Shown: positions 1 through 11,279 of the stretch, in pieces | Layout of the letters: every line of letters starts with the position of its first letter | Numbering within the stretch: position 1 is the stretch's first letter | IMG/VR virus record: IMGVR_UViG_2778261535_000008 | Location: 1 to 11,279 of that record | Origin: a virus | Lineage: Duplodnaviria; Heunggongvirae; Uroviricota; Caudoviricetes | Strand: one strand, 5' to 3' | DNA length: 11,279 bases | Notes under the pieces: generated by a model | Database searches by the model: none | Seen by the model: only the letters and a program-made list of their open reading frames with translations | Told to the model about the DNA's origin: nothing | Position numbers and translations under genes: made by a program

Positions 1-1056
1 AAATATCAGGTCAGTCAGGGCGAATTATCAACCCTGTCAGAAGCGCAGAAAAAAACGCTTTTACAGAATGCGGCACTCATCGACCAGAAAAAGATTCGTG
101 AGCAGCTTGCCGCGTATGAAAGCAGTCTGGCGGACAGTAATGCCAGTGCCCGTGCATCTGACGACGCGCAGTTGCTGGGATATGGTGAAGGCTCACGGAT
201 GCGTGAACGACTCCAGGAAATGTGGAGTATCCGGCAGGCGTTTGAGCAGAAAAATAACGAGCTGCTGAGACAGTATCAGACCGGAGAAATTGAAGAAGCC
301 CTGTGGAAACAGGAAAAATCGCTGAATGAAAAATATCTGGAAGAGCGTCTCAGCGATCAGCAGGATTATTATGCAAAGGCTGATGCTTTACGCAGTAACT
401 GGAATGCCGGGCTCAAAGAGGGGCTGACGAACTGGGCAGACAGTGCCACTGATTATGCTTCGCAGGCGGCAGATGCTGTCGTTTCCACTATGGACGGGCT
501 GGTATCAAATATTTCCGATGCACTGGCCGGGAATGTTGTGGACTGGAGAAACTGGGGGAGTTCAATTCTCCAGGAAGTTTCAAAAATCCTGATGAACGCG
601 GCAATTGTTAACGGGCTGAAATCACTCTCCGGGACAATGTCGGGAGCGGGGGGATGGATTGGTAGTGTTGGCGACTGGCTTTCCGGTGCAGTAGCGAACG
701 CAAAAGGCGGTGTTTACACATCGGCAAATCTGAGTGCTTACAGTAACACCATTGTGGATACGCCGACGTACTTTGCTTTTGCGAAAGGTGCCGGGCTGAT
801 GGGGGAAGCCGGACCTGAAGCTATCATGCCGCTTACGCGGGCAGCGGACGGTTCTCTTGGGGTCAGGGCTATTGGCAATGTGAATGGTGGTGGCGGATTT
901 GTCTATTCTCCCGTGTATCACATCAATATTCAGAATAAAGGGAGCAATGGCGAGATTGATACGCAGTCAGCCAGGGGGCTGGTGGATCTGATCGACAGCA
1001 GGGTTGTGTCAATTATGCAGTCATCACGTCGGGACGGAGGATTATGCAGTGCCTGA
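1..1056 (+). CDS. H: Tail tape measure protein, C-terminal portion (5'-truncated by the window edge)
   Basis: Frame 1 is open from base 1 to the TGA at 1054-1056; the ORF track reports only the part from the first Met at 172. Gly/Ala/Ser-rich C-terminal region immediately upstream of M-L-K-I-J, as in lambda. Function assigned by position and synteny. Confidence 0.85.
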   Translation, partial: KYQVSQGELSTLSEAQKKTLLQNAALIDQKKIREQLAAYESSLADSNASARASDDAQLLGYGEGSRMRERLQEMWSIRQAFEQKNNELLRQYQTGEIEEALWKQEKSLNEKYLEERLSDQQDYYAKADALRSNWNAGLKEGLTNWADSATDYASQAADAVVSTMDGLVSNISDALAGNVVDWRNWGSSILQEVSKILMNAAIVNGLKSLSGTMSGAGGWIGSVGDWLSGAVANAKGGVYTSANLSAYSNTIVDTPTYFAFAKGAGLMGEAGPEAIMPLTRAADGSLGVRAIGNVNGGGGFVYSPVYHINIQNKGSNGEIDTQSARGLVDLIDSRVVSIMQSSRRDGGLCSA

Positions 1057-1390
1057 ACCTGAAGTTTTTAACTGGATCCCCCGCGAGGGGATGGAGACGA
1101 CACGAAAGCCATCTGTTATTACAGTAAAGTTCGGTGACGGATATGAACAGCGACGGGCTGGTGGTCTGAATGCGGATCTGAAAACCTTTAAACCGGTATT
1201 TCGTGTCACAGATGAATATTCCCGCGCCGCGCTGGACAGTTTTTTATCCCGTCATGCCGGGATGCGTGCTTTTTTGTGGCGCCCGCCAAAACACAACAGG
1301 ACTGTCAGGGTTGTCTGCAGGGAGTGGAGTACTTCGGATAATGCCATGTATACCGATTTTAACTGTACCTTTGAAGAGGTCACTCACTGA
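1049..1390 (+). CDS. M: Minor tail protein M
   Basis: Translation (VPEPEVFNWIPREGMETTRKPSVITVKFGDGYEQR...) matches the lambda gpM family, including the conserved VxFGDGY and FLWxPP segments. Proposed start is the GTG at 1049, 8 nt after a GGAGG at 1036-1040 and overlapping the H stop; the TTG at 1004 given by the ORF track is less likely. Start codon is the uncertain part. Confidence 0.8.
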   Translation: MPEPEVFNWIPREGMETTRKPSVITVKFGDGYEQRRAGGLNADLKTFKPVFRVTDEYSRAALDSFLSRHAGMRAFLWRPPKHNRTVRVVCREWSTSDNAMYTDFNCTFEEVTH

Positions 1391-2088
1391 TGCAGGATAT
1401 ACAACAGGAAACACTGAATGAGTGTACAAAAGCGGAGCAATCCGCACTGGTCGTGCTCTGGGAAGTCGATCTGACAGAAGTCGGTGGCGAGCGTTATTTT
1501 TTCTGTAATGAGCAGAACGAAAAAGGTGAGTCAGTCACCTGGCAGGGGCGGCAGTATCAGGCGTATCCCATTCAGGGGAGCGGATTTGAGATGAACGGCA
1601 AAGGAGCCAGTGCCAGACCAACACTGAAGGTATCTAATCTGCACGGTATGGTCACTGGTATGGCGGAAGATCTGCATAGTCTGGTCGGCGGAACGGTGGT
1701 CCGGCGTAAGGTTTACGCCCGTTTTCTGGATGCGGTGAACTTCGTCAACGGAAACAGCGAAGCCGATCCGGAGCAGGAGGTGATCAGCCGCTGGCGCATC
1801 GAGCAGTGCAGCGAACTGAGCGCGGTCAGTGCCTCTTTTGTGCTGTCCACACCGACGGAAACGGATGGTGCTGTTTTCCCGGGGCGCATCATGCTAGCTA
1901 ATACCTGCACCTGGACCTATCGCGGTGATGAGTGCGGTTATAACGGTCCGGCTGTCGCTGATGAATATGACCAGCCGACGTCCGATATCACGAAGGATAA
2001 ATGCAGCAAATGCCTGAGTGGCTGTAAGTTTCGCAATAATGTCGGCAACTTTGGCGGCTTCCTTTCCATTAACAAACTTTCGCAGTAA
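1390..2088 (+). CDS. L: Minor tail protein L
   Basis: 232-aa product MQDIQQETLNECTKAEQSALVVLWEVDL...GGFLSINKLSQ matches lambda gpL nearly end to end as I recall it, including the C-terminal Cys cluster (CSKCLSGC). ATG overlaps the M stop (TGATG at 1388-1392). Confidence 0.92.
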   Translation: MQDIQQETLNECTKAEQSALVVLWEVDLTEVGGERYFFCNEQNEKGESVTWQGRQYQAYPIQGSGFEMNGKGASARPTLKVSNLHGMVTGMAEDLHSLVGGTVVRRKVYARFLDAVNFVNGNSEADPEQEVISRWRIEQCSELSAVSASFVLSTPTETDGAVFPGRIMLANTCTWTYRGDECGYNGPAVADEYDQPTSDITKDKCSKCLSGCKFRNNVGNFGGFLSINKLSQ

Positions 2089-2093
2089 ATCCC

Positions 2094-2837
2094 ATGACAG
2101 AGACAGAATCAGCGATTCTGGCGCACGCCCGACGATGTGCGCCAGCGGAGTCGTGCGGCTTCGTGGTGAGAACACCGGAGGGGAAAAGATATTTTCCCTG
2201 CGTGAATATCTCCGGTGAGCCGGAGGAGTATTTCCGGATGTCGCCGGAGGACTGGCTGCAGGCAGAGATGCAGGGTGAGATTGTCGCGCTGGTCCACAGC
2301 CATCCCGGTGGTCTGCCCTGGCTGAGTGAAGCCGACCGGCGGCTGCAGGTGCAGAGTGATTTGCCGTGGTGGCTGGTCTGCCGTGGGGAGATTCATAAAT
2401 TCCGCTGTGTGCCGTATCTCACCGGGCGGCGCTTTGAGCACGGGGTGACGGACTGTTACACGCTGTTCCGGGACGCTTACCATCTGGCGGGGATTGAGAT
2501 GCCGGATTTTCACCGCGAGGATGACTGGTGGCGTAACGGTCAGAATCTCTATCTGGATAATCTGGAGGCCACAGGGCTGTATCAGGTGCCGTTGTCAGCG
2601 GCGCAGCCGGGCGATGTGCTGCTGTGCTGTTTTGGTTCATCGGTGCCGAATCATGCCGCCATTTACTGCGGCGACGGCGAGCTGTTGCACCATATTCCTG
2701 AACAACTGAGTAAACGAGAGAGGTATACCGACAAATGGCAGCGACGCACACACTCCCTCTGGCGTCACCGGGCATGGCACGCATCTGCCTTTACGGGGAT
2801 TTACAACGATTTGGCCGCCGCATCGACCTTCGTGTGA
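2094..2837 (+). CDS. K: Tail tip assembly protein K, long form (N-terminal MPN/JAMM domain plus C-terminal NlpC/P60 domain)
   Basis: 247-aa ORF. A JAMM motif HSHPGGLPWLSEAD (HxHx7Sx2D) is encoded at about 2295-2336. NlpC/P60-type Cys (GVTDCYTLF) and His (HAAIYCGDGELLHH) lie downstream. The in-frame ATG at 2238 corresponds to the shorter 199-aa form annotated in lambda. The 3' end overlaps I by 103 nt. Confidence 0.9.
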   Translation: MTETESAILAHARRCAPAESCGFVVRTPEGKRYFPCVNISGEPEEYFRMSPEDWLQAEMQGEIVALVHSHPGGLPWLSEADRRLQVQSDLPWWLVCRGEIHKFRCVPYLTGRRFEHGVTDCYTLFRDAYHLAGIEMPDFHREDDWWRNGQNLYLDNLEATGLYQVPLSAAQPGDVLLCCFGSSVPNHAAIYCGDGELLHHIPEQLSKRERYTDKWQRRTHSLWRHRAWHASAFTGIYNDLAAASTFV

Positions 2838-3382
2838 AAACGGGGGCCGAAGCCATCCGGGCGCTGGCCACGCAGCTTCCGTCGTTTCGCCAGAAACTGA
2901 ATGAGGGCTGGTATCAGGTGCGCATTGCCGGGCGTGATGCAGGCGAAAATGAATTATCTGCCCGTCTTAATGAACCGCTGGTAAACGGCGCAGTGATCCA
3001 CATCGTACCGCGTCTGGCGGGAGCTAAAAGTGGCGGTGTTTTTCAGGCAGTGCTGGGTGCGGCGCTGATTGCGGTGGCATGGTGGAACCCTGTGGGCTGG
3101 CTGGGTGCCGCGGCTGTATCGGGCATGTATGCGGCAGGGGCCAGTATGATCCTGGGCGGTGTGGCTCAGATGCTGGCACCAAAAGCCAGAACTCCCCGCA
3201 CACAGACAACGGATAACGGTAAGCAGAACACCTATTTCTCCTCACTGGATAACATGGTTGCCCAGGGCAATGTCCTGCCTGTTCTGTACGGTGAAATGCG
3301 CGTGGGGTCGCGGGTGGTTTCTCAGGAGATCAGCACGGCAGACGAAGGGGACGGTGGTCAGGTTGTGGTGATTGGTCGCTGA
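2735..3382 (+). CDS. I: Tail tip assembly protein I
   Basis: 215-aa product MAATHTLPLASPGMARICLYGDLQRFGRRIDLRVKTGAEAIRALATQLP...GGQVVVIGR matches the lambda gpI family, with a ubiquitin-like N-terminal region and a hydrophobic Gly/Ala-rich centre. Starts inside the 3' end of K in a different frame, as in lambda. Confidence 0.9.
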   Translation: MAATHTLPLASPGMARICLYGDLQRFGRRIDLRVKTGAEAIRALATQLPSFRQKLNEGWYQVRIAGRDAGENELSARLNEPLVNGAVIHIVPRLAGAKSGGVFQAVLGAALIAVAWWNPVGWLGAAAVSGMYAAGASMILGGVAQMLAPKARTPRTQTTDNGKQNTYFSSLDNMVAQGNVLPVLYGEMRVGSRVVSQEISTADEGDGGQVVVIGR

Positions 3383-3400
3383 TGCAAAATGTTTTATGTG

Positions 3401-3428
3401 AAACCGCCTCCGGGCGGTTTTGTCGTTT
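3401..3428 (+). terminator. Hairpin followed by a T-rich tract between I and J (possible weak terminator or attenuator)
   Basis: aaaccgcc (3401-3408), loop tccg, ggcggttt (3413-3420), then tgtcgttt. Perfect 8-bp stem but the U-tract is interrupted. It sits 15 nt upstream of the J start. Confidence 0.3.
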
Positions 3429-3442
3429 ATGGAGCGTGAGGA

Positions 3443-6400
3443 ATGGGTAAAGGCAGCAGTAAGGGGCATACCCCGCGCGAAGCGAAGGACAACCTGAAGT
3501 CCACGCAGTTACTGAGTGTGATTGATGCCATCAGCGAAGGACCGATTGAAGGTCCGGTGGATGGATTAAAAAGCGTGCTGCTGAACAGTACGCCGGTGCT
3601 GGACAGTGAAGGGAATACCAACATCGCCGGTGTCACGGTGGTGTTCCGGGCAGGTGAGCAGGAGCAGACACCGCCGGAGGGTTTTGAATCCTCCGGATCC
3701 GAGACGGTGCTGGGTACGGAAGTGAAATACGACACGCCGATCACCCGGACCATCACGTCTGCAAACATCGACCGTCTGCGCTTTACCTTCGGTGTGCAGG
3801 CTCTGGTGGAAACCACTTCAAAGGGGGACCGGAATCCGTCGGAAGTCCGCCTGCTGGTTCAGATACAGCGTAACGGTGGCTGGGTGACGGAAAAAGACAT
3901 CACCATTAAGGGCAAAACCACCTCGCAGTATCTGGCCTCGGTGGTGGTGGATAACCTGCCTCCGCGCCCGTTCAATATCCGGATGCGCAGGATGACGCCG
4001 GACAGCACCACAGACCAGCTGCAGAACAAAACGCTCTGGTCGTCATACACCGAAATCATCGATGTGAAACAGTGCTACCCGAACACGGCACTGGTCGGCG
4101 TGCAGGTGGATTCGGAGCAGTTCGGCAGCCAGCAGGTGAGCCGTAATTATCATCTGCGCGGGCGCATTCTGCAGGTGCCGTCGAACTATAACCCGCAGAC
4201 GCGGCAATACAGCGGTATCTGGGACGGGACGTTTAAGCCAGCATACAGCAACAACATGGCCTGGTCTCTGTGGGATATGCTGACCCATCCGCGCTACGGC
4301 ATGGGGAAACGTCTTGGTGCGGCGGATGTGGACAAATGGGCGCTGTATGTCATCGGCCAGCATTGCGATCAGTCGGTGCCGGACGGTTTTGGCGGCACAG
4401 AGCCGCGCATCACCTGTAATGCGTACCTGACCACACAGCGTAAGGCGTGGGATGTTCTCAGTGATTTCTGCTCGGCGATGCGCTGTATGCCGGTATGGAA
4501 CGGGCAGACGCTGACGTTCGTGCAGGACCGACCGTCGGATAAGGTGTGGACCTATAACCGCAGTAATGTGGTGATGCCGGATGATGGCGCGCCGTTCCGC
4601 TACAGCTTCAGCGCCCTGAAGGACCGCCATAATGCCGTTGAGGTGAACTGGATTGACCCGAATAACGGCTGGGAGACGGCGACAGAGCTTGTGGAGGACA
4701 CGCAGGCCATTGCCCGTTACGGTCGTAACGTCACGAAGATGGATGCTTTTGGCTGTACCAGCCGGGGGCAGGCACACCGCGCCGGGCTGTGGCTGATTAA
4801 AACGGAGCTGCTGGAAACGCAGACCGTGGACTTCAGCGTGGGCGCAGAAGGGCTTCGCCATGTACCGGGCGATGTCATTGAAATCTGTGATGATGACTAT
4901 GCGGGTATCAGCATCGGCGGGCGCGTACTGGCGGTGAACAGCCAGACGCGGACACTGACGCTCGACCGTGAAATCACGCTGCCATCCTCCGGCACCACGC
5001 TGATAAGCCTGGTTGACGGACAGGGGAATCCGGTCAGCGTGGAGGTCCAGTCCGTCACCGACGGCGTGAAGGTGAAAGTGAGCCGGGTTCCTGACGGCGT
5101 TGCTGAATACAGCGTGTGGGGGCTGAAGCTGCCGACGCTGCGCCAGCGCCTGTTCCGCTGTGTGAGTATCCGTGAGAACGACGACGGCACGTATGCCATC
5201 ACTGCCGTGCAGCATGTACCGGAAAAAGAAGCCATTGTGGATAACGGGGCGCACTTTGACGGCGACCAGAGCGGCACGGTGAATGGTGTCACGCCGCCAG
5301 CGGTGCAGCACCTGACCGCAGAAGTCACCGCAGACAGCGGGGAATACCAGGTGCTGGCGCGCTGGGATACGCCGAAGGTGGTGAAGGGCGTGAGCTTTAT
5401 GCTTCGCCTGACCGTGGCAGCGGATGACGGCAGTGAGCGGCTGGTCAGCACGGCCCGGACGACGGAAACCACATACCGCTTCAGGCAGCTGGCTCTGGGA
5501 AATTACAGTCTGACAGTCCGGGCGGTAAATGCGTGGGGGCAGCAGGGCGATCCGGCGTCGGTATCGTTCCGGATTGCCGCACCGGCAGCGCCATCGCGGA
5601 TTGAGCTGACGCCGGGCTATTTTCAGATAACCGCCACGCCGCATCTTGCGGTTTATGATCCGACTGTACAGTTTGAGTTCTGGTTCTCGGAAAAGCGGAT
5701 TGCGGATATCAGGCAGGTTGAAACCACAGCCCGCTATCTTGGCACGGCGCTGTACTGGATAGCTGCCAGTATCAATATTAAGCCGGGTCATGATTATTAT
5801 TTTTACGTTCGCAGTGTGAACACCGTTGGCAAATCGGCATTCGTGGAGGCTGTCGGTCGGGCGAGCGATGATGCGGAAGGTTACCTGGATTTTTTCAAAG
5901 GCCAGATAACCGAATCCCATCTCGGCAAGGAGCTGCTGGAAAAAGTCGAGCTGACGGAGGATAACGCCAGCAAACTGGAGGAGTTTTCGAAAGAGTGGAA
6001 AGACGCCAACGATAAATGGAATGCCATGTGGGGCGTCAAAATTGAGCAGACCGAAGACGGCAAACATTATGTCGCGGGGCTTGGCCTTAGTATGGAGGAT
6101 ACGGAGGAAGGCAAACTGAGCCAGTTCCTGGTTGCCGCTAACCGTATCGCGTTTATTGACCCGGCAAACGGGAATGAAACGCCGATGTTTGTGGCGCAGG
6201 GCAACCAGATATTCATGAACGAAGTGTTCCTGAAGTATCTGACGGCTCCCACCATTACCAGTGGCGGCAATCCTCCGGTATTTTCCCTGACACCGGACGG
6301 GCGGCTGACGGCGAAAAATGCCGATATCAGCGGTAACGTGAATGCGAACTCCGGGACGCTCAACAACGTCACGGTAAATGAAAACTGTACGATTAAGGGC

Positions 6401-6856
6401 ATGCTGGAGGCGAACCAGGTCAGAGGTGACTTCGTTAAAGCTGTATCCAAATCATTCCCGAAACAGGCTGGTACGTGGGGTAACACGGAAACACCAAACG
6501 GGACGGTTACAGTCACCATCAGCGATGATCATAACTTTGACCGTCAAATCATTATTCCGCCCATTATCTTTAACGGAATAGCGTATAGCGATCCGGGAAG
6601 TGGTAATAACCCGGGAGGTACAAGATACACGGGTTATGGTTTTGAAGTTCGCAAAAACGGTGTATTAATCGCATCCAGAGAAACTAAAGGGGCCATTCCC
6701 GGTAGCTACAGTGCGGTTATTGATATGCCGAGTGGCAGGGGAAGCGTCACTCTGGAGTTTAAGGTTTTCCATAAAGGCAATCAGTGGGCAGGTAATATCA
6801 CCGACTGTACGGTGATTGTGACCAAAAAAGCCGCTTCCGGCATCAGTATTCGTTGA
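3443..6856 (+). CDS. J: Host specificity protein J (central tail fiber / tip attachment protein)
   Basis: 1137-aa ORF with GGAG at 3431-3434. The N-terminal ~980 aa ([54 protein letters not shown]...) closely match lambda gpJ as I recall it. The C-terminal ~150 aa are divergent (see findings). Confidence 0.95.
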
Positions 6857-6877
6857 AATTGTTATAACCCATATAAG

Positions 6878-6901
6878 GGCACCAGAAATGGTGCCTTTTT
6901 T
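6878..6901 (+). terminator. Rho-independent terminator downstream of J
   Basis: Stem ggcacc (6878-6883), loop agaaat, stem ggtgcc (6890-6895), followed by six T (6896-6901). Confidence 0.6.
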
Positions 6902-6925
6902 ATTGCAGAAAAGCGAGAGGTAATT

Positions 6926-7525
6926 ATGCGTAAACTTTATGCCGCCATTTTTTCCGCAGCCATCTGTCTGGCCGTATCCGGTGCGCCTGCATGGGCATCT
7001 GAACATCAGTCCACGCTGAGCGCGGGGTATCTTCATGCCTCGACGAACGTTCCCGGCAGCGATGATCTTAACGGGATTAACGTGAAATACCGTTATGAGT
7101 TTACGGACACACTGGGGCTGGTGACGTCATTCAGCTATGCAGGAGACAAGAATCGCCAGCTTACCCGTTACAGCGATACCCGCTGGCATGAAGATTCCGT
7201 GCGTAACCGCTGGTTCAGCGTGATGGCGGGGCCGTCTGTGCGCGTGAATGAATGGTTCAGCGCGTATGCGATGGCGGGTATGGCTTACAGCCGTGTTTCG
7301 ACTTTCTCCGGAGATTATATCCGCGTAACTGACAACAAGGGGAAAACGCACGATGTGCTGACCGGAAGTGATGACGGTCGCCACAGCGACACGTCTCTGG
7401 CATGGGGGGCTGGCGTGCAGTTTAACCCGACCGAATCCGTGGCCATTGATATTGCTTATGAAGGTTCCGGCAGTGGCGACTGGCGCACTGACGGTTTCAT
7501 CGTTGGTGTCGGTTATAAATTCTGA
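6926..7525 (+). CDS. lom: Lom, outer membrane beta-barrel protein of the Ail/Lom/PagC family (moron)
   Basis: 199-aa product with an N-terminal signal peptide ([24 protein letters not shown], AxA cleavage motif), alternating amphipathic beta-strand pattern and a C-terminal aromatic residue (GVGYKF). Located between J and stf as in lambda. RBS GAGAGG at 6915-6920. Confidence 0.9.
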
Positions 7526-7551
7526 TTAGCCAGGTAACACAGTGTTATGAC

Positions 7552-7578
7552 AGCCCGCCGGTTCAGGCGGGCTTTTTT
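7552..7578 (+). terminator. Rho-independent terminator downstream of lom
   Basis: Stem agcccgcc (7552-7559), loop ggttca, stem ggcgggct (7566-7573), followed by a T-run (7573-7578). Confidence 0.6.
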
Positions 7579-7589
7579 GTGGAGTGGAT

Positions 7590-9986
7590 ATGGCAGCAGT
7601 AAAAATCTCAGGTGTGCTGAAAGATGGTGCGGGAAAACCAATACAGAACTGCACTATTCAACTGAAGGCAAAGCGTAACAGCACCACGGTACTGGTCAAC
7701 ACAGTGGCCTCTGAAAATCCGGACGAAGCCGGGCGTTACAGCATGGATGTTGAGTATGGCCAGTACAGCGTCACCCTGCTGGTTGAAGGTTTTCCGCCTT
7801 CACATGCCGGGACCATTACCGTCTATGAAGGTTCCAGACCAGGTACGCTGAATGATTTTCTCGGTGCCATGACGGAAGATGATGTCATGCCGGAGGCATT
7901 GCGTCGTTTTGAGGAAATGGTGGAAGAAGCGGCACGCAACGCCGAAGCCGCCTCTCAGAGCGCAACGGCGGCAAAGAAATCCGAAACTGCAGCGGCATCA
8001 TCGAAGAACGCGGCGAAAACCTCAGAAACGAATGCAGCTAATAGTGCACAGGCGGCAGCGGCCTCGCAGACTGCATCGGCAAACTCCGCGACAGCAGCCA
8101 AAAAATCAGAAACCAACGCGAAAAACAGCGAGACAGCCGCAAAGACGAGCGAAACCAACGCAAAGTCCAGCCAGACGGCAGCGAAAACCAGCGAAACGAA
8201 TGCCAAAGCCAGTGAAACTGCAGCGAAAAATAGCCAGAATGCAGCAGCCGAAAGCGAGAGCGCGGCAGCCGGTTCTGCGACTTCAGCAGCCGGATCAGCA
8301 ACTGCTGCGGCTAACAGTCAGAAAGCAGCGAAGACGAGCGAAACCAACGCAAAGTCCAGCCAGACGGCAGCGAAGACCAGCGAAACGAATGCTAAAGCCA
8401 GCGAAACTGCGGCGAAAAACAGTCAGGATGCAGCAGCCCAAAGCGAGAGTGCCGCAGCTGGTTCTGCAAGTGCGGCGGCTGCTTCTGCCACTGCATCAGC
8501 CAACAGTCAAAAAGCTGCAAAAACCAGTGAAACCAATGCAAAGACAAGCGAGACTGCAGCGGCGAAATCGGCGCAAGCATCGGCAGCAAGCCAGACAGCA
8601 GCTAAAGCAAGTGAAGACGCAGCCAGGGAGTATGCAAGCCAGGCTGCAGAGCCGTATAAACAAGTTTTGCAGCCCCTGCCTGATGTGTGGATACCGTTTA
8701 ACGATTCACTGGAAATGATTACTGGTTTCGCTCCTGGTTATAAAAAAGTAACTATCGGTGATGATGTTATTACTTTTCCATCAGAGAAAGTTGTATCTTT
8801 CACCCGCTCCACTTCTGCAACGTATATAAATAAATCAGGTTCATTTACTTTTGCAGAAATTAATGAACCGCGCTTTGAAAAGGAAGGTTTATTAATTGAA
8901 GGTCAGAGGACAAATACATTTACGAATAGCAACAATCCTTCATTATGGAACTATGACGACAAGAATATAGAAATAACCACATCGGTTGATGAATATGGTT
9001 TTAAATATGGGTTGTTCGATGTAAAGGAAACATCAACCACTGAAAGGGCGACGATAATATCTACTGGATACAGCAGGGTTATTGATGTTGCTGCAAATGA
9101 ATCTGTTACCTTGTCCTGTAGGGTTAAGAAGATAAATGGAGAAGGTATTATAACGTTAAGACCCAGAATATCTTTCGTTAACGATAACGGCACAAGCAAC
9201 ACGCTGGTAGCTGGTTCCTACATAGATTGCGAAACTGGTGATGTTTTAGGTTTTTCTGGTGGAGATGCTGTAAATCATGTCATATACAGAGAAGCTAACG
9301 GATGGTTACGCGTCGAATTTACATATAAATCACCAGATGCAAAAAGTATGTATGGGCGCTTTGAAATGGGAGCAGATAAAAGGGCGATCAAAAAAGGCGA
9401 TCAGATAATGTTTACTACGCCACAATTTGAAAAAGGATCGTGTGCATCATCATTTATCGTTACATCAGATGTGGCAGTTACACGGGCTAGTGACGTGGTA
9501 ATAATGCCAATAAGACTGAACTGGTCAACGCCTCCGTTAAGCGTTCTTATGGAAGTTAATATCAACTGGGACAAAATGCCAAACAGTGAAGGTTCAGCAA
9601 GGCTTCTTAACGTGTCAATAACTGGCGCAACAACGGATGTTGCTGATGAAAGTTATATGTATTTTGGTTTTACCTCTGGAGGCGCGCGCTCAATTATAAC
9701 TAACGGAAAAGGAACAAAGACCGAGTATAAAGCCTACTGTAACAGGACAACCCGCAGGTTTATTGCTGGATTTAAGTTTACAGAGCAGAAAGAATTGCGT
9801 GCTGTTATAAACGGTAACTTTGGCGCTGTTGGTGTATCACAACACACAAGACAACGTTATACAGAAGGGCCAATAAATATAGGCGGTCAATCAATATCAG
9901 GTAACAGGCATTTATTTGGACACGTACGCAATTTACGTATCTGGCATAAGGAACTGACAGATGCACAAATGGGAGAAAGAATATAA
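7590..9986 (+). CDS. stf: Side tail fiber protein (Stf-like): conserved N-terminal anchor, Ala/Ser/Thr/Lys-rich repeat shaft, divergent distal module with a LamG/ConA-like C-terminus
   Basis: ATG at 7590 is preferred over the GTG at 7584 used by the ORF track; GGAG at 7581-7584. N-terminus MAAVKISGVLKDGAGKPIQNCTIQLKAKRNSTTVLVNTVASENPDEAGRYSMDVEYGQYSV...HAGTITVYE matches the lambda Stf N-terminus as I recall it. The C-terminal motif LFGHVRNLRIWHKELTDAQM resembles the terminal strand signature of Laminin_G_3 / concanavalin-A-like jelly-roll domains. Confidence 0.85.
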   Translation: MAAVKISGVLKDGAGKPIQNCTIQLKAKRNSTTVLVNTVASENPDEAGRYSMDVEYGQYSVTLLVEGFPPSHAGTITVYEGSRPGTLNDFLGAMTEDDVMPEALRRFEEMVEEAARNAEAASQSATAAKKSETAAASSKNAAKTSETNAANSAQAAAASQTASANSATAAKKSETNAKNSETAAKTSETNAKSSQTAAKTSETNAKASETAAKNSQNAAAESESAAAGSATSAAGSATAAANSQKAAKTSETNAKSSQTAAKTSETNAKASETAAKNSQDAAAQSESAAAGSASAAAASATASANSQKAAKTSETNAKTSETAAAKSAQASAASQTAAKASEDAAREYASQAAEPYKQVLQPLPDVWIPFNDSLEMITGFAPGYKKVTIGDDVITFPSEKVVSFTRSTSATYINKSGSFTFAEINEPRFEKEGLLIEGQRTNTFTNSNNPSLWNYDDKNIEITTSVDEYGFKYGLFDVKETSTTERATIISTGYSRVIDVAANESVTLSCRVKKINGEGIITLRPRISFVNDNGTSNTLVAGSYIDCETGDVLGFSGGDAVNHVIYREANGWLRVEFTYKSPDAKSMYGRFEMGADKRAIKKGDQIMFTTPQFEKGSCASSFIVTSDVAVTRASDVVIMPIRLNWSTPPLSVLMEVNINWDKMPNSEGSARLLNVSITGATTDVADESYMYFGFTSGGARSIITNGKGTKTEYKAYCNRTTRRFIAGFKFTEQKELRAVINGNFGAVGVSQHTRQRYTEGPINIGGQSISGNRHLFGHVRNLRIWHKELTDAQMGERI
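8142..8519 (+). repeat. In-frame tandem duplication, 2 x 189 bp (63 codons), within the stf shaft
   Basis: Unit 1 (8142-8330) and unit 2 (8331-8519) both begin aagacgagcgaaaccaacgcaaagtccagccagacggcagcga and stay roughly 90% identical by eye. They encode AKTSETNAKSSQTAAKTSETNAKASETAAKNSQ...SQKA twice. Degenerate shorter copies of the same motif flank both sides (about 7960-8600). Confidence 0.8.
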
Positions 9987-10267
9987 TGCGAGACTTAACC
10001 CTCAAATTCATAAACAAGGCCGACTTTTCGGCCTTTATGGATAGCATTGGTTATGACGATGACGAGGTGATGCAGAACAATGTTCTCATTGATGTGATAG
10101 GTAACGTGTACAAAGAAACCGGAGAAATTACTGAAGATGGCGAGCCGGTATGTGTTAAGGAAGACGGATATTTTGTAAACGTGCGCATCATTAATGATGT
10201 GAAAACACCGTCAATATTCGATGAATACGCGGTTGTTGTTGAGCATCAACTTCGTGGCTGGATGTGA
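9986..10267 (+). CDS. Hypothetical small acidic protein, translationally coupled to stf (possible fiber accessory or assembly factor)
   Basis: 93-aa ORF whose ATG overlaps the stf stop (TAATG at 9984-9988). Asp/Glu-rich; I recognise no family. It occupies the slot where lambda has tfa but shows no resemblance to lambda Tfa. Confidence 0.5.
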   Translation: MRDLTLKFINKADFSAFMDSIGYDDDEVMQNNVLIDVIGNVYKETGEITEDGEPVCVKEDGYFVNVRIINDVKTPSIFDEYAVVVEHQLRGWM

Positions 10268-10276
10268 GGGAGACAA

Positions 10277-10966
10277 ATGGCTACATCGACAGTAATTCCA
10301 GGAGATATCACCACGCTAAAGGGAGATGTCAGTAAAACTAAGGAAGATATTTCCTCAATTAACGGAAAAGTATCAACGCTTCAGATTGATATGACCAGTG
10401 CAAAGCAGGATATCAGCACCAGATACACAAAAACTGAAGTTGATAATAAGCTGAAAAACAAAGTGGAAGCGAACGATCTGGAAAGCGGTCGTTATGGCGG
10501 TGATTTTTACCCGCTGACAGGTCGTGAAGCGTTTTATTTATGGAATTTGGCCACGACTACAGCGGCGGCAAACCTTTATCTTAATCCTGACCCCGCAATT
10601 TCGTCTGTACTGCGGTCAACATCGTCTATTCGCTATAAACATTCAGTAGAGACGATAGATTCAGAGCACGCCGATCTCATTTTCAAGATGCGCCCTGTGT
10701 GGTACAGGTCGCAATGCGAAAATGACAGGCGTGACTGGGGATTCTACGGGTTGATTGCCGAGGAAGTAGGAGAAATTGCCCCTCAGTTTGTACACTGGCG
10801 ACCAGCTAACGAGAATGATGCTCCTGAAGCTATTTCCAGCAATGGCCTTGTAGCCGAAGGTGTAATGTACGAACGTCTGGTTGTTCCACTGATTCACCAT
10901 ATCCAGAAACTGACTGAAAGAGTTGAAGAACTTGAGTCAGAATTAAAGTTGTTATCAACTTCCTGA
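10277..10966 (+). CDS. Short fiber-like protein with N-terminal coiled-coil region and C-terminal intramolecular chaperone (peptidase S74-like) auto-processing domain
   Basis: 229-aa ORF with GGAG at 10269-10272. N-terminal 70 aa are heptad-like and Ser/Thr/Lys-rich. The C-terminal 110 aa (SSIRYKHSVETIDSEHADLIFKMRPVWYR...WGFYGLIAEEVGEIAPQFV...EGVMYERLVVPLIHHIQKLTERVEELESELKLL) match the conserved pattern of the chaperone-of-endosialidase domain: Ser...Lys dyad, GxIAQEV-like core, Y-x-x-L-V/I-P-L-I and a terminal coiled coil. Confidence 0.65.
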   Translation: MATSTVIPGDITTLKGDVSKTKEDISSINGKVSTLQIDMTSAKQDISTRYTKTEVDNKLKNKVEANDLESGRYGGDFYPLTGREAFYLWNLATTTAAANLYLNPDPAISSVLRSTSSIRYKHSVETIDSEHADLIFKMRPVWYRSQCENDRRDWGFYGLIAEEVGEIAPQFVHWRPANENDAPEAISSNGLVAEGVMYERLVVPLIHHIQKLTERVEELESELKLLSTS

Positions 10967-10991
10967 AGCGATATCGGATAAAGGAGGAGTA

Positions 10992-11279
10992 ATGGATATA
11001 AGCCCCTTACTTCATGCGCTTTGTGCTGTGGCTGCGCAGGTACTGATTGGCCTTTTTACCGGAAACTGGGCTTACGGTGCGATAGCTGGTTGTTCGTTCT
11101 TCATTGCGCGCGAACACACCCAGGCAGAATATCGCTGGATTGAAATGTTCGGACATGGCAAGCGTATGAATATGCCGTGGTGGGGCGGTTTTGATCCACG
11201 CGCGTGGGATGTAGCAAGTCTGATGGATTTTTCTGTGCCGGTGGTGGCGTGTATTCTGGTCTGGCTGTTGATCCGTTGA
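10992..11279 (+). CDS. Hypothetical small membrane protein, possible lipoprotein (candidate moron)
   Basis: 95-aa ORF with a strong RBS AAGGAGG at 10981-10987; the stop is the last codon of the window. Two hydrophobic segments (residues about 5-38 and 80-94). A lipobox-like IAGC motif at residues 31-34 follows the first segment. No family recognised. Confidence 0.45.
   Translation: MDISPLLHALCAVAAQVLIGLFTGNWAYGAIAGCSFFIAREHTQAEYRWIEMFGHGKRMNMPWWGGFDPRAWDVASLMDFSVPVVACILVWLLIR

Follow-up and report, generated by a model that had tools for sequence, protein, structure and literature searches.

A lambda-like J protein with a 434-type receptor-binding tip predicted to use OmpC

The stretch of DNA analysed here (IMG/VR record IMGVR_UViG_2778261535_000008; 11,279 nucleotides (nt); subsequently designated the window) carries a complete gene J, encoding the tip attachment or central tail fibre protein of a lambda-like phage. 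The open reading frame (ORF) of J and its translation were taken from a program-made list, and J02459 served as the lambda reference. As judged from its sequence, the protein's C-terminal end (residues 985–1137; window positions 6395–6856, which include the stop codon; subsequently designated the tip) is the already known 434-type (h434) host-range allele, borne on a J body of lambda type. Homology to phage 434 further predicts that this tip uses OmpC as receptor, and we put the probability of this reading as a whole at about 85%.

The J tip and its relation to lambda and phage 434

Residues 1–984 of J are identical to lambda gpJ at 950 of 984 positions (96.5%), which bears out an earlier note on this DNA, made from the sequence alone, in which the first ~980 residues were described as near-identical to lambda. 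The domain architecture is likewise that of gpJ, as all six families (FNIII-A_GpJ, Phage-tail_3, Ig_J, Ig_J_second, Phage_Tail_Tip and Ig_GpJ_C) score above their Pfam gathering scores and follow each other in canonical order. The gene also occupies the position of a lambda-like gpJ, the order around it being (H)-M-L-K-I-J-lom-stf.

Similarity to lambda breaks off near the C-terminus. In a global alignment with lambda gpJ, identity per 50-residue bin amounts to 92–100% through residue 950 and drops to 74%, 42%, 30% and 30% in the bins thereafter. Over residues 985–1137, 57 of the 142 aligned pairs are identical (~40%) and five indels are present; together with the lack of a blastn match to lambda directly past position 6412, this sets the tip apart from a lambda-type LamB-binding domain, whose C-terminus it would be expected to match at more than 90% had the divergence been only apparent. 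At the nucleotide level, identity to lambda is 86–99% per 100 nt up to 6342 and 73% in the bin 6343–6442, with dense mismatches beginning at ~6394. The start of the divergent region that had been proposed, position 6395 (codon 985, K), is therefore essentially exact. The conserved islands that had been recognised within this region are also real, as they pair in the global alignment with lambda VTDDHPFDRQIVV and IVDMPAGRGNVILTF; core motifs common with the lambda tip include DDHxFDRQI and DMPxGRG. The five indels adjoin lambda residues 1011/1012, 1043/1044, 1078/1079, 1099/1100 and 1109–1114. A survey of 1207 natural J homologues has located hot spots of indels and variation at 1012, 1049, 1077 and 1107 within a specificity region spanning 960–1132 (PMC6646904), and by alignment the five indels of the window J lie at or near these published hot spots.

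In contrast to this divergence from lambda, the tip is identical to that of phage 434 J at 145 of 153 residues (~95%) without a single gap, and the two J proteins have the same total length of 1137 amino acids (aa). Positions 6395–6856 differ from 434 at 34 of 462 nt; of the codons affected, 21 are changed synonymously and eight non-synonymously, the latter corresponding to N991T, S1004A, Q1008K, A1009V, N1019D, S1049D, R1099G and W1115R (window to 434). When phage records were searched with this DNA segment, 74 records were retrieved, all with at least 91% identity. Phage 434 (two records) and the lambda h434 imm21 hybrid match at 92.6% over the 462 nt, and the 434 segment of this hybrid has been described as its host-range allele (PMC9119081). 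Closer matches of 99.1–99.6% were obtained with the long-tailed Stx1a/Stx2c prophages of O157:H7 and with PhiR49_1 (99.6%), Perceval, ev099, IdasGreatGrand and cdtI; at the protein level, the tips of the Stx phages, ev099 and IdasGreatGrand are 99.3% identical to that of the window. A translated search of phage records revealed that J tips form discrete classes: 74 records reach at least 90% identity, 169 stay below 60% and none lies in between, the groups below 60% being found near 45%, 42%, 41% and, for lambda, 36%. Since the classes are discrete and the tip falls into the class with at least 90% identity, the segment is to be regarded as a member of the 434-type class and not as a new variant.

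Several known systems are close enough for direct comparison. Phage 434 itself (OL657226) shares, in addition to J length and tip, an identical J-lom spacer and terminator and a Lom protein with 97.5% identity, and it differs by the eight tip substitutions and, past ~7945, by its side tail fibre. The allele in the lambda h434 hybrid (OM418627) is matched at 92.6% over the same 462 nt. The O157 Stx1a/Stx2c prophages and the PhiR49_1 group have a nearly identical tip (99.1–99.6% nt identity), but only ~96–97% identity across 5800–7000, indicating that the flanks of these relatives are a different mosaic from the window.

The tip belongs to the Pfam family of gpJ C-terminal receptor-binding domains: hmmscan assigned residues 1001–1136 to PF12421 with 91.0 bits (gathering score, 26.2), and the match spans profile positions 1–134 of 135. 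All 153 residues align end to end with the gpJ domain of A8 (9wca/9wcb; E = 1.7e-29), which is the best sequence match in the PDB, and with the lambda gpJ domain (8xcj/8xck; E = 3.6e-20). Taken together, the family score, the full-length alignment to solved domains and an identity to lambda of only ~40% support the view of the earlier note that the C-terminus is a homologous but distinct receptor-binding domain. An AlphaFold2 model of the tip had to be built on a shallow alignment of 12 clean members; a diverse alignment was not obtained, as a large-scale protein search with the 153-aa domain yielded nothing beyond tips of its own type and ORFs that were truncated or chimeric, with unrelated N-termini. 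The model is all-beta and of low confidence (mean pLDDT 57.7, pTM 0.53). Its top four Foldseek matches in the PDB are 8xck, 9wca, 9wcb and 8xcj (TM ~0.55, E ~5e-10, with a scoring that is partly sequence-based), the best one being the lambda gpJ domain. Given the low confidence of the model, we take this predicted match to the fold of gpJ domains as supportive only.

The lambda gpJ domain solved on LamB (8XCJ, 8XCK) thus shares the Pfam family, the position at the fibre end and core motifs with the tip, but is distinguished by ~40% identity, five indels, a G+C content (GC) of 55.5% as compared to 47.8% in the window, LamB as receptor and its rarity in Escherichia coli (98 versus 2111 genomes, see below). 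The A8 gpJ domain (9WCA, 9WCB), which was solved with OmpC of EDL933, is homologous and uses OmpC as determined experimentally. With 43–44% identity to the window tip it represents a different receptor-domain type, and an A8-type OmpC-binding domain was rejected as the identity of the tip. The 1A2 gpJ chimera is likewise of another type than the 434-type, according to a sequence recovered from a supplement of PMC11338833 that is noisy from optical character recognition. Protein-motif searches in the supplements on the engineered OmpC-binding gpJ chimeras A8 and 1A2 gave no match.

Receptor use and alternative readings

Since 1978 it has been textbook knowledge in phage genetics that lambdoid phages exchange the J C-terminus and that the 434 allele changes the receptor from LamB to OmpC, and structures of homologous gpJ domains are now available. 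When 434 J replaces lambda J, the phage binds OmpC, the receptor of 434, and the J C-terminus sets this specificity (PMC3509688; PMC11101478; both citing Hantke 1978 and Fuerst & Bingham 1978). Because the window tip is 145/153 identical to 434, whose J redirects lambda, OmpC is strongly favoured as its receptor; the earlier note, according to which the sequence does not reveal the receptor, was too pessimistic on this point.

The same evidence bears on the possibility that the tip still binds LamB as that of lambda does, its divergence reflecting neutral drift. The fold family and some core motifs (DDHxFDRQI, DMPxGRG) are common with lambda, and the lambdoid phage 21 natively uses LamB (PMC11336670). 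However, an identity of only 40%, with five indels at specificity hot spots, and receptor-domain types that are discrete and lack intermediates are hard to reconcile with drift, and it is the near-identical 434 homologue that uses OmpC and makes lambda bind OmpC when its J is transferred. Retention of LamB binding is thus very improbable.

For OmpC use, a triggering mechanism can be outlined. Electron cryo-microscopy of lambda has revealed that four bottom loops of the trimeric immunoglobulin-like (Ig-like) domains enter trimeric LamB, whereupon the bottoms of these domains spread, and that this change travels up the beta-prism fibre and the helical shaft until the tail tip opens (PMC11101478). 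In view of the 95% identity to the 434 determinant and the conserved fibre above it, the window J most likely employs the same trigger, fired by OmpC, as far as the lambda and A8 structures can serve as models. Accordingly modelled, the three Ig-like domains at the end of the trimeric central fibre would dock on the extracellular side of trimeric OmpC, not of LamB, with their distal loops inserted. By analogy to lambda J on LamB, docking would spread the bottoms of the three domains, and this spreading would twist the beta-prism fibre and flip the helical shaft. As a result, the FNIII strings would be released and the tail tip would be opened for ejection of the DNA.

Several points weigh against this assignment. 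OmpC use by exactly this allele is what we infer from homology, and eight of the 153 tip residues are not those of 434, several of them being located in segments that vary within the type. In lambda and phage 21, single substitutions in J are known to alter porin use or to extend it to a further porin (PMC11336670; PMC6646904), and related gpJ domains discriminate between OmpC alleles, as documented for 1A2 versus A8 (PMC11338833). The low confidence of the structural model also counts on this side.

These points lead to a second alternative, in which the eight substitutions have moved the 434-type tip to another or expanded set of receptors (e.g. OmpF, or OmpC together with OmpF) or have confined it to certain OmpC alleles, for instance that of O157 type. 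Indeed, 1049, 1099 and 1115 are among the sites polymorphic within the type, and the variable sites cluster at 1004–1019, 1049–1061 and 1097–1115. The nearest relatives, with 99.3% aa identity, are O157 Stx1a/Stx2c prophages, the gpJ chimeras A8 and 1A2 accept different OmpC alleles (PMC11338833), and phage 21 and lambda can acquire the use of a new porin by one to four substitutions in J (PMC11336670; PMC6646904). On the other hand, the tip is 95% identical to 434 and free of indels, and the ratio of synonymous to non-synonymous codons (21:8) indicates conserved function. Moreover, according to their records phages of the 434 type were propagated on K-12, MC1061 and ECOR13, suggesting broad rather than O157-restricted use. 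Variable sites are not significantly enriched in predicted loops (21/31 versus a background of 83/153, p = 0.11), a comparison that relies on a poor model. We therefore regard a shift to another receptor set as distinctly unlikely. A related form, in which the eight substitutions (including S1049, R1099 and W1115) adapt the tip to some OmpC alleles only or enable it to use another porin in addition, appears somewhat less unlikely, but is still doubtful. If it holds, the 434-type class would be made up of sub-specificities, and these would shape which E. coli lineages exchange prophages, including those encoding Stx.

The exchanged cassette and its surroundings

Blastn comparison of the window with the lambda locus yielded one alignment from 1370 to 6412 (91.6% identity), a match of 59 nt inside lom and a further alignment from 7398 to 7942; over 6413–7397, no lambda nucleotide homology was detected apart from these 59 nt. 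With phage 434, one unbroken alignment spans 1432–7945 (92.7%). Between J and lom, the window has exactly the spacer of 434, which differs from that of lambda, and a terminator is annotated in the 434 record at an offset equal to that of the hairpin detected in the window. Lom is identical to 434 Lom at 194 of 199 residues (97.5%), but to lambda Lom at only 94 of 196 (48%). As Lom and spacer are 434-like and lambda homology stops at 6412, these alignments delimit the unit exchanged relative to lambda to ~1 kb (~6395–7397), comprising the J tip, the terminator and ~80% of lom, and they indicate joint inheritance of the J tip and lom within a single cassette. The divergent block had been thought to end at the J stop codon (6856), but lambda-unlike DNA continues to ~7397. 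Exchange of the cassette may have occurred by recombination in the conserved stretch just upstream of the tip (~residues 960–984), where its left junction is located. Lambda residue 964, the graft point of engineered gpJ chimeras (PMC11338833), is within the same stretch.

The AT shift that had been pointed out at the end of J was confirmed, with a qualification. GC is 47.8% over 6395–6856 and 57.7% over 3443–6394, and GC at third codon positions (GC3) is 48.1% and 70.0%, respectively; both differences are significant (Fisher p = 8e-5 for GC and 2e-7 for GC3), so that the two parts of J do differ in composition. The equivalent lambda segment has a GC of 55.5% and a GC3 of 62.4%. However, part of the drop begins upstream, as GC falls from ~0.60 to ~0.52 already near 5600, in the J genes of window and lambda alike. 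When compared to the adjacent 792 nt (5603–6394), total GC of the tip is not significantly different (p = 0.16) and only GC3 is lower (p = 0.004). Amino-acid composition was ruled out as the cause: GC drops most strongly at third codon positions (from 70% to 48%) and rises at second positions (from 44% to 48%), and the shift is thus no by-product of amino-acid content. Low GC3 characterises the 434-type cassette in its entirety and fits a history separate from that of the GC-rich J body.

Alternatively, the segment could be a decaying remnant in a defective prophage that has lost its adsorption function, the AT shift resulting from relaxed selection. The window derives from a bacterial draft assembly and hence from a prophage, and many database matches to the tip domain are truncated or chimeric ORFs. 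However, the frame of 1137 codons is intact, the six J domains are above the Pfam cut-offs, the identical J protein occurs in two independent assemblies and the differences from 434 are mostly synonymous. In addition, the cassette is also carried, at 92.6% nt identity, by phages that are viable, among them 434, and low GC is therefore a feature of the cassette rather than of decay in the window prophage. We give this explanation next to no credence.

Table 1. Features located in and around gene J (window positions).
Feature	Positions	Strand	Basis
L	1390–2088	+	ORF list
K	2094–2837	+	ORF list
I	2735–3382	+	ORF list
J, complete; tip attachment / central tail fibre protein, 1137 aa	3443–6856	+	ORF, translation, Pfam, length equal to 434 J
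Lambda-like body of J, residues 1–984 (hub domains, FNIII domains, helical shaft, beta-prism fibre)	3443–6394	+	950/984 aa identical to lambda gpJ
Receptor-binding region of J assigned to the 434-type (h434), residues 985–1137 and stop codon	6395–6856	+	Divergence from lambda, match to 434, GC
PF12421 Ig_GpJ_C domain, residues 1001–1136	6443–6850	+	hmmscan, E = 9.2e-26
Intrinsic-terminator-like hairpin and T-run, J-lom spacer	6875–6904	+	Terminator scan
lom, 434-type allele, 199 aa	6926–7525	+	PF06316 Ail_Lom, E = 3e-119
Side-tail-fibre ORF, 800 aa from the listed GTG; 798 aa in source assemblies	7584–9986	+	ORF list

The window spans the distal portion of a lambda-like tail gene cluster. All tail genes of the window are located on the + strand, in the order tape-measure end, M, L, K, I, J, lom, stf and three small ORFs, and the arrangement is colinear with both lambda and 434 (Table 1). 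The neighbours of J are annotated in two matching draft contigs as Phage_min_tail, Phage_tail_L, NLPC_P60, Lambda_tail_I, J, Ail_Lom and phage_tail_N. At the left side, nucleotide homology to lambda and 434 begins only at ~1370–1432, at the M/L boundary. The tape-measure end and M (window 1–1390) are of another type than in lambda and 434, so that a second mosaic junction can be placed here; the tape-measure protein of the source contig comprises 1080 aa with an HK97-type TLTM domain, as compared to 853 aa in lambda.

Downstream of lom, the side tail fibre (stf) has a lambda-like N-terminal domain (PF08400), followed by ~250 aa of Ala/Ser/Thr/Lys-rich repeats (SETNAK.S.TAAKT...) that cause an AT skew of 0.5–0.7 at 7950–8550. 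In the C-terminal ~400 aa, GC is down to 35–42% from ~8700 onwards, past the last nucleotide match to lambda and 434, and no Pfam match was obtained for this part. Where lambda has tfa, three ORFs of 93 aa, 229 aa and at least 95 aa follow stf (9986–11279). The 229-aa ORF carries a Peptidase_S74 domain (intramolecular chaperone of endosialidase), whereas the 93-aa ORF and the one of at least 95 aa had no Pfam match; none of the three matched a Pfam tail-fibre-assembly family. Just past the right end of the window, the source contigs (L005, 11343–16857; L004, 17900–23414) contain a gene for a 428-aa flagellin on the opposite strand and, beyond it, a gene with an ASCH domain, a group II intron reverse transcriptase and an IS3-family transposase. 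It is possible that this represents a non-fliC flagellin island adjoining the prophage.

Prevalence in E. coli and significance

The segment might be taken for something unusual, but this is not the case. Among 5426 complete E. coli genomes, a 434-type J tip is present in 2111 (~39%), with up to 7 copies per genome. The LamB-type tip of lambda was found in 98 of these genomes, with at least 99% identity throughout, and among the carriers listed are laboratory strains, for instance BL21(DE3) and K-12 derivatives. In sequenced E. coli, the 434-type is thus the common allele and the LamB-type of lambda the rare one.

As a whole, the window is present at high identity in no phage record or complete E. 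coli genome searched. The best phage record, PhiR49_1_star, covers 67% of it at 93.9% identity, and in the best complete genome, that of E. coli AVS0655, matches at 95% identity extend over 94% of the window, but the J encoded there is longer and different. Exactly the same J protein is encoded in two draft assemblies at NCBI (GCA_020296055.1 and GCA_002511955.1), and in one of the two the contig starts a single base ahead of the window.

Nothing about the J tip is new, since the 434-type host-range allele was already known. For annotation, the value of the assignment is that the central fibre of this prophage can be labelled 434-type and, by homology, probably OmpC-dependent. The prevalence of the 434-type is relevant to the prediction of prophage host range, including that of Stx phages, and to the choice of gpJ modules for engineered delivery particles.

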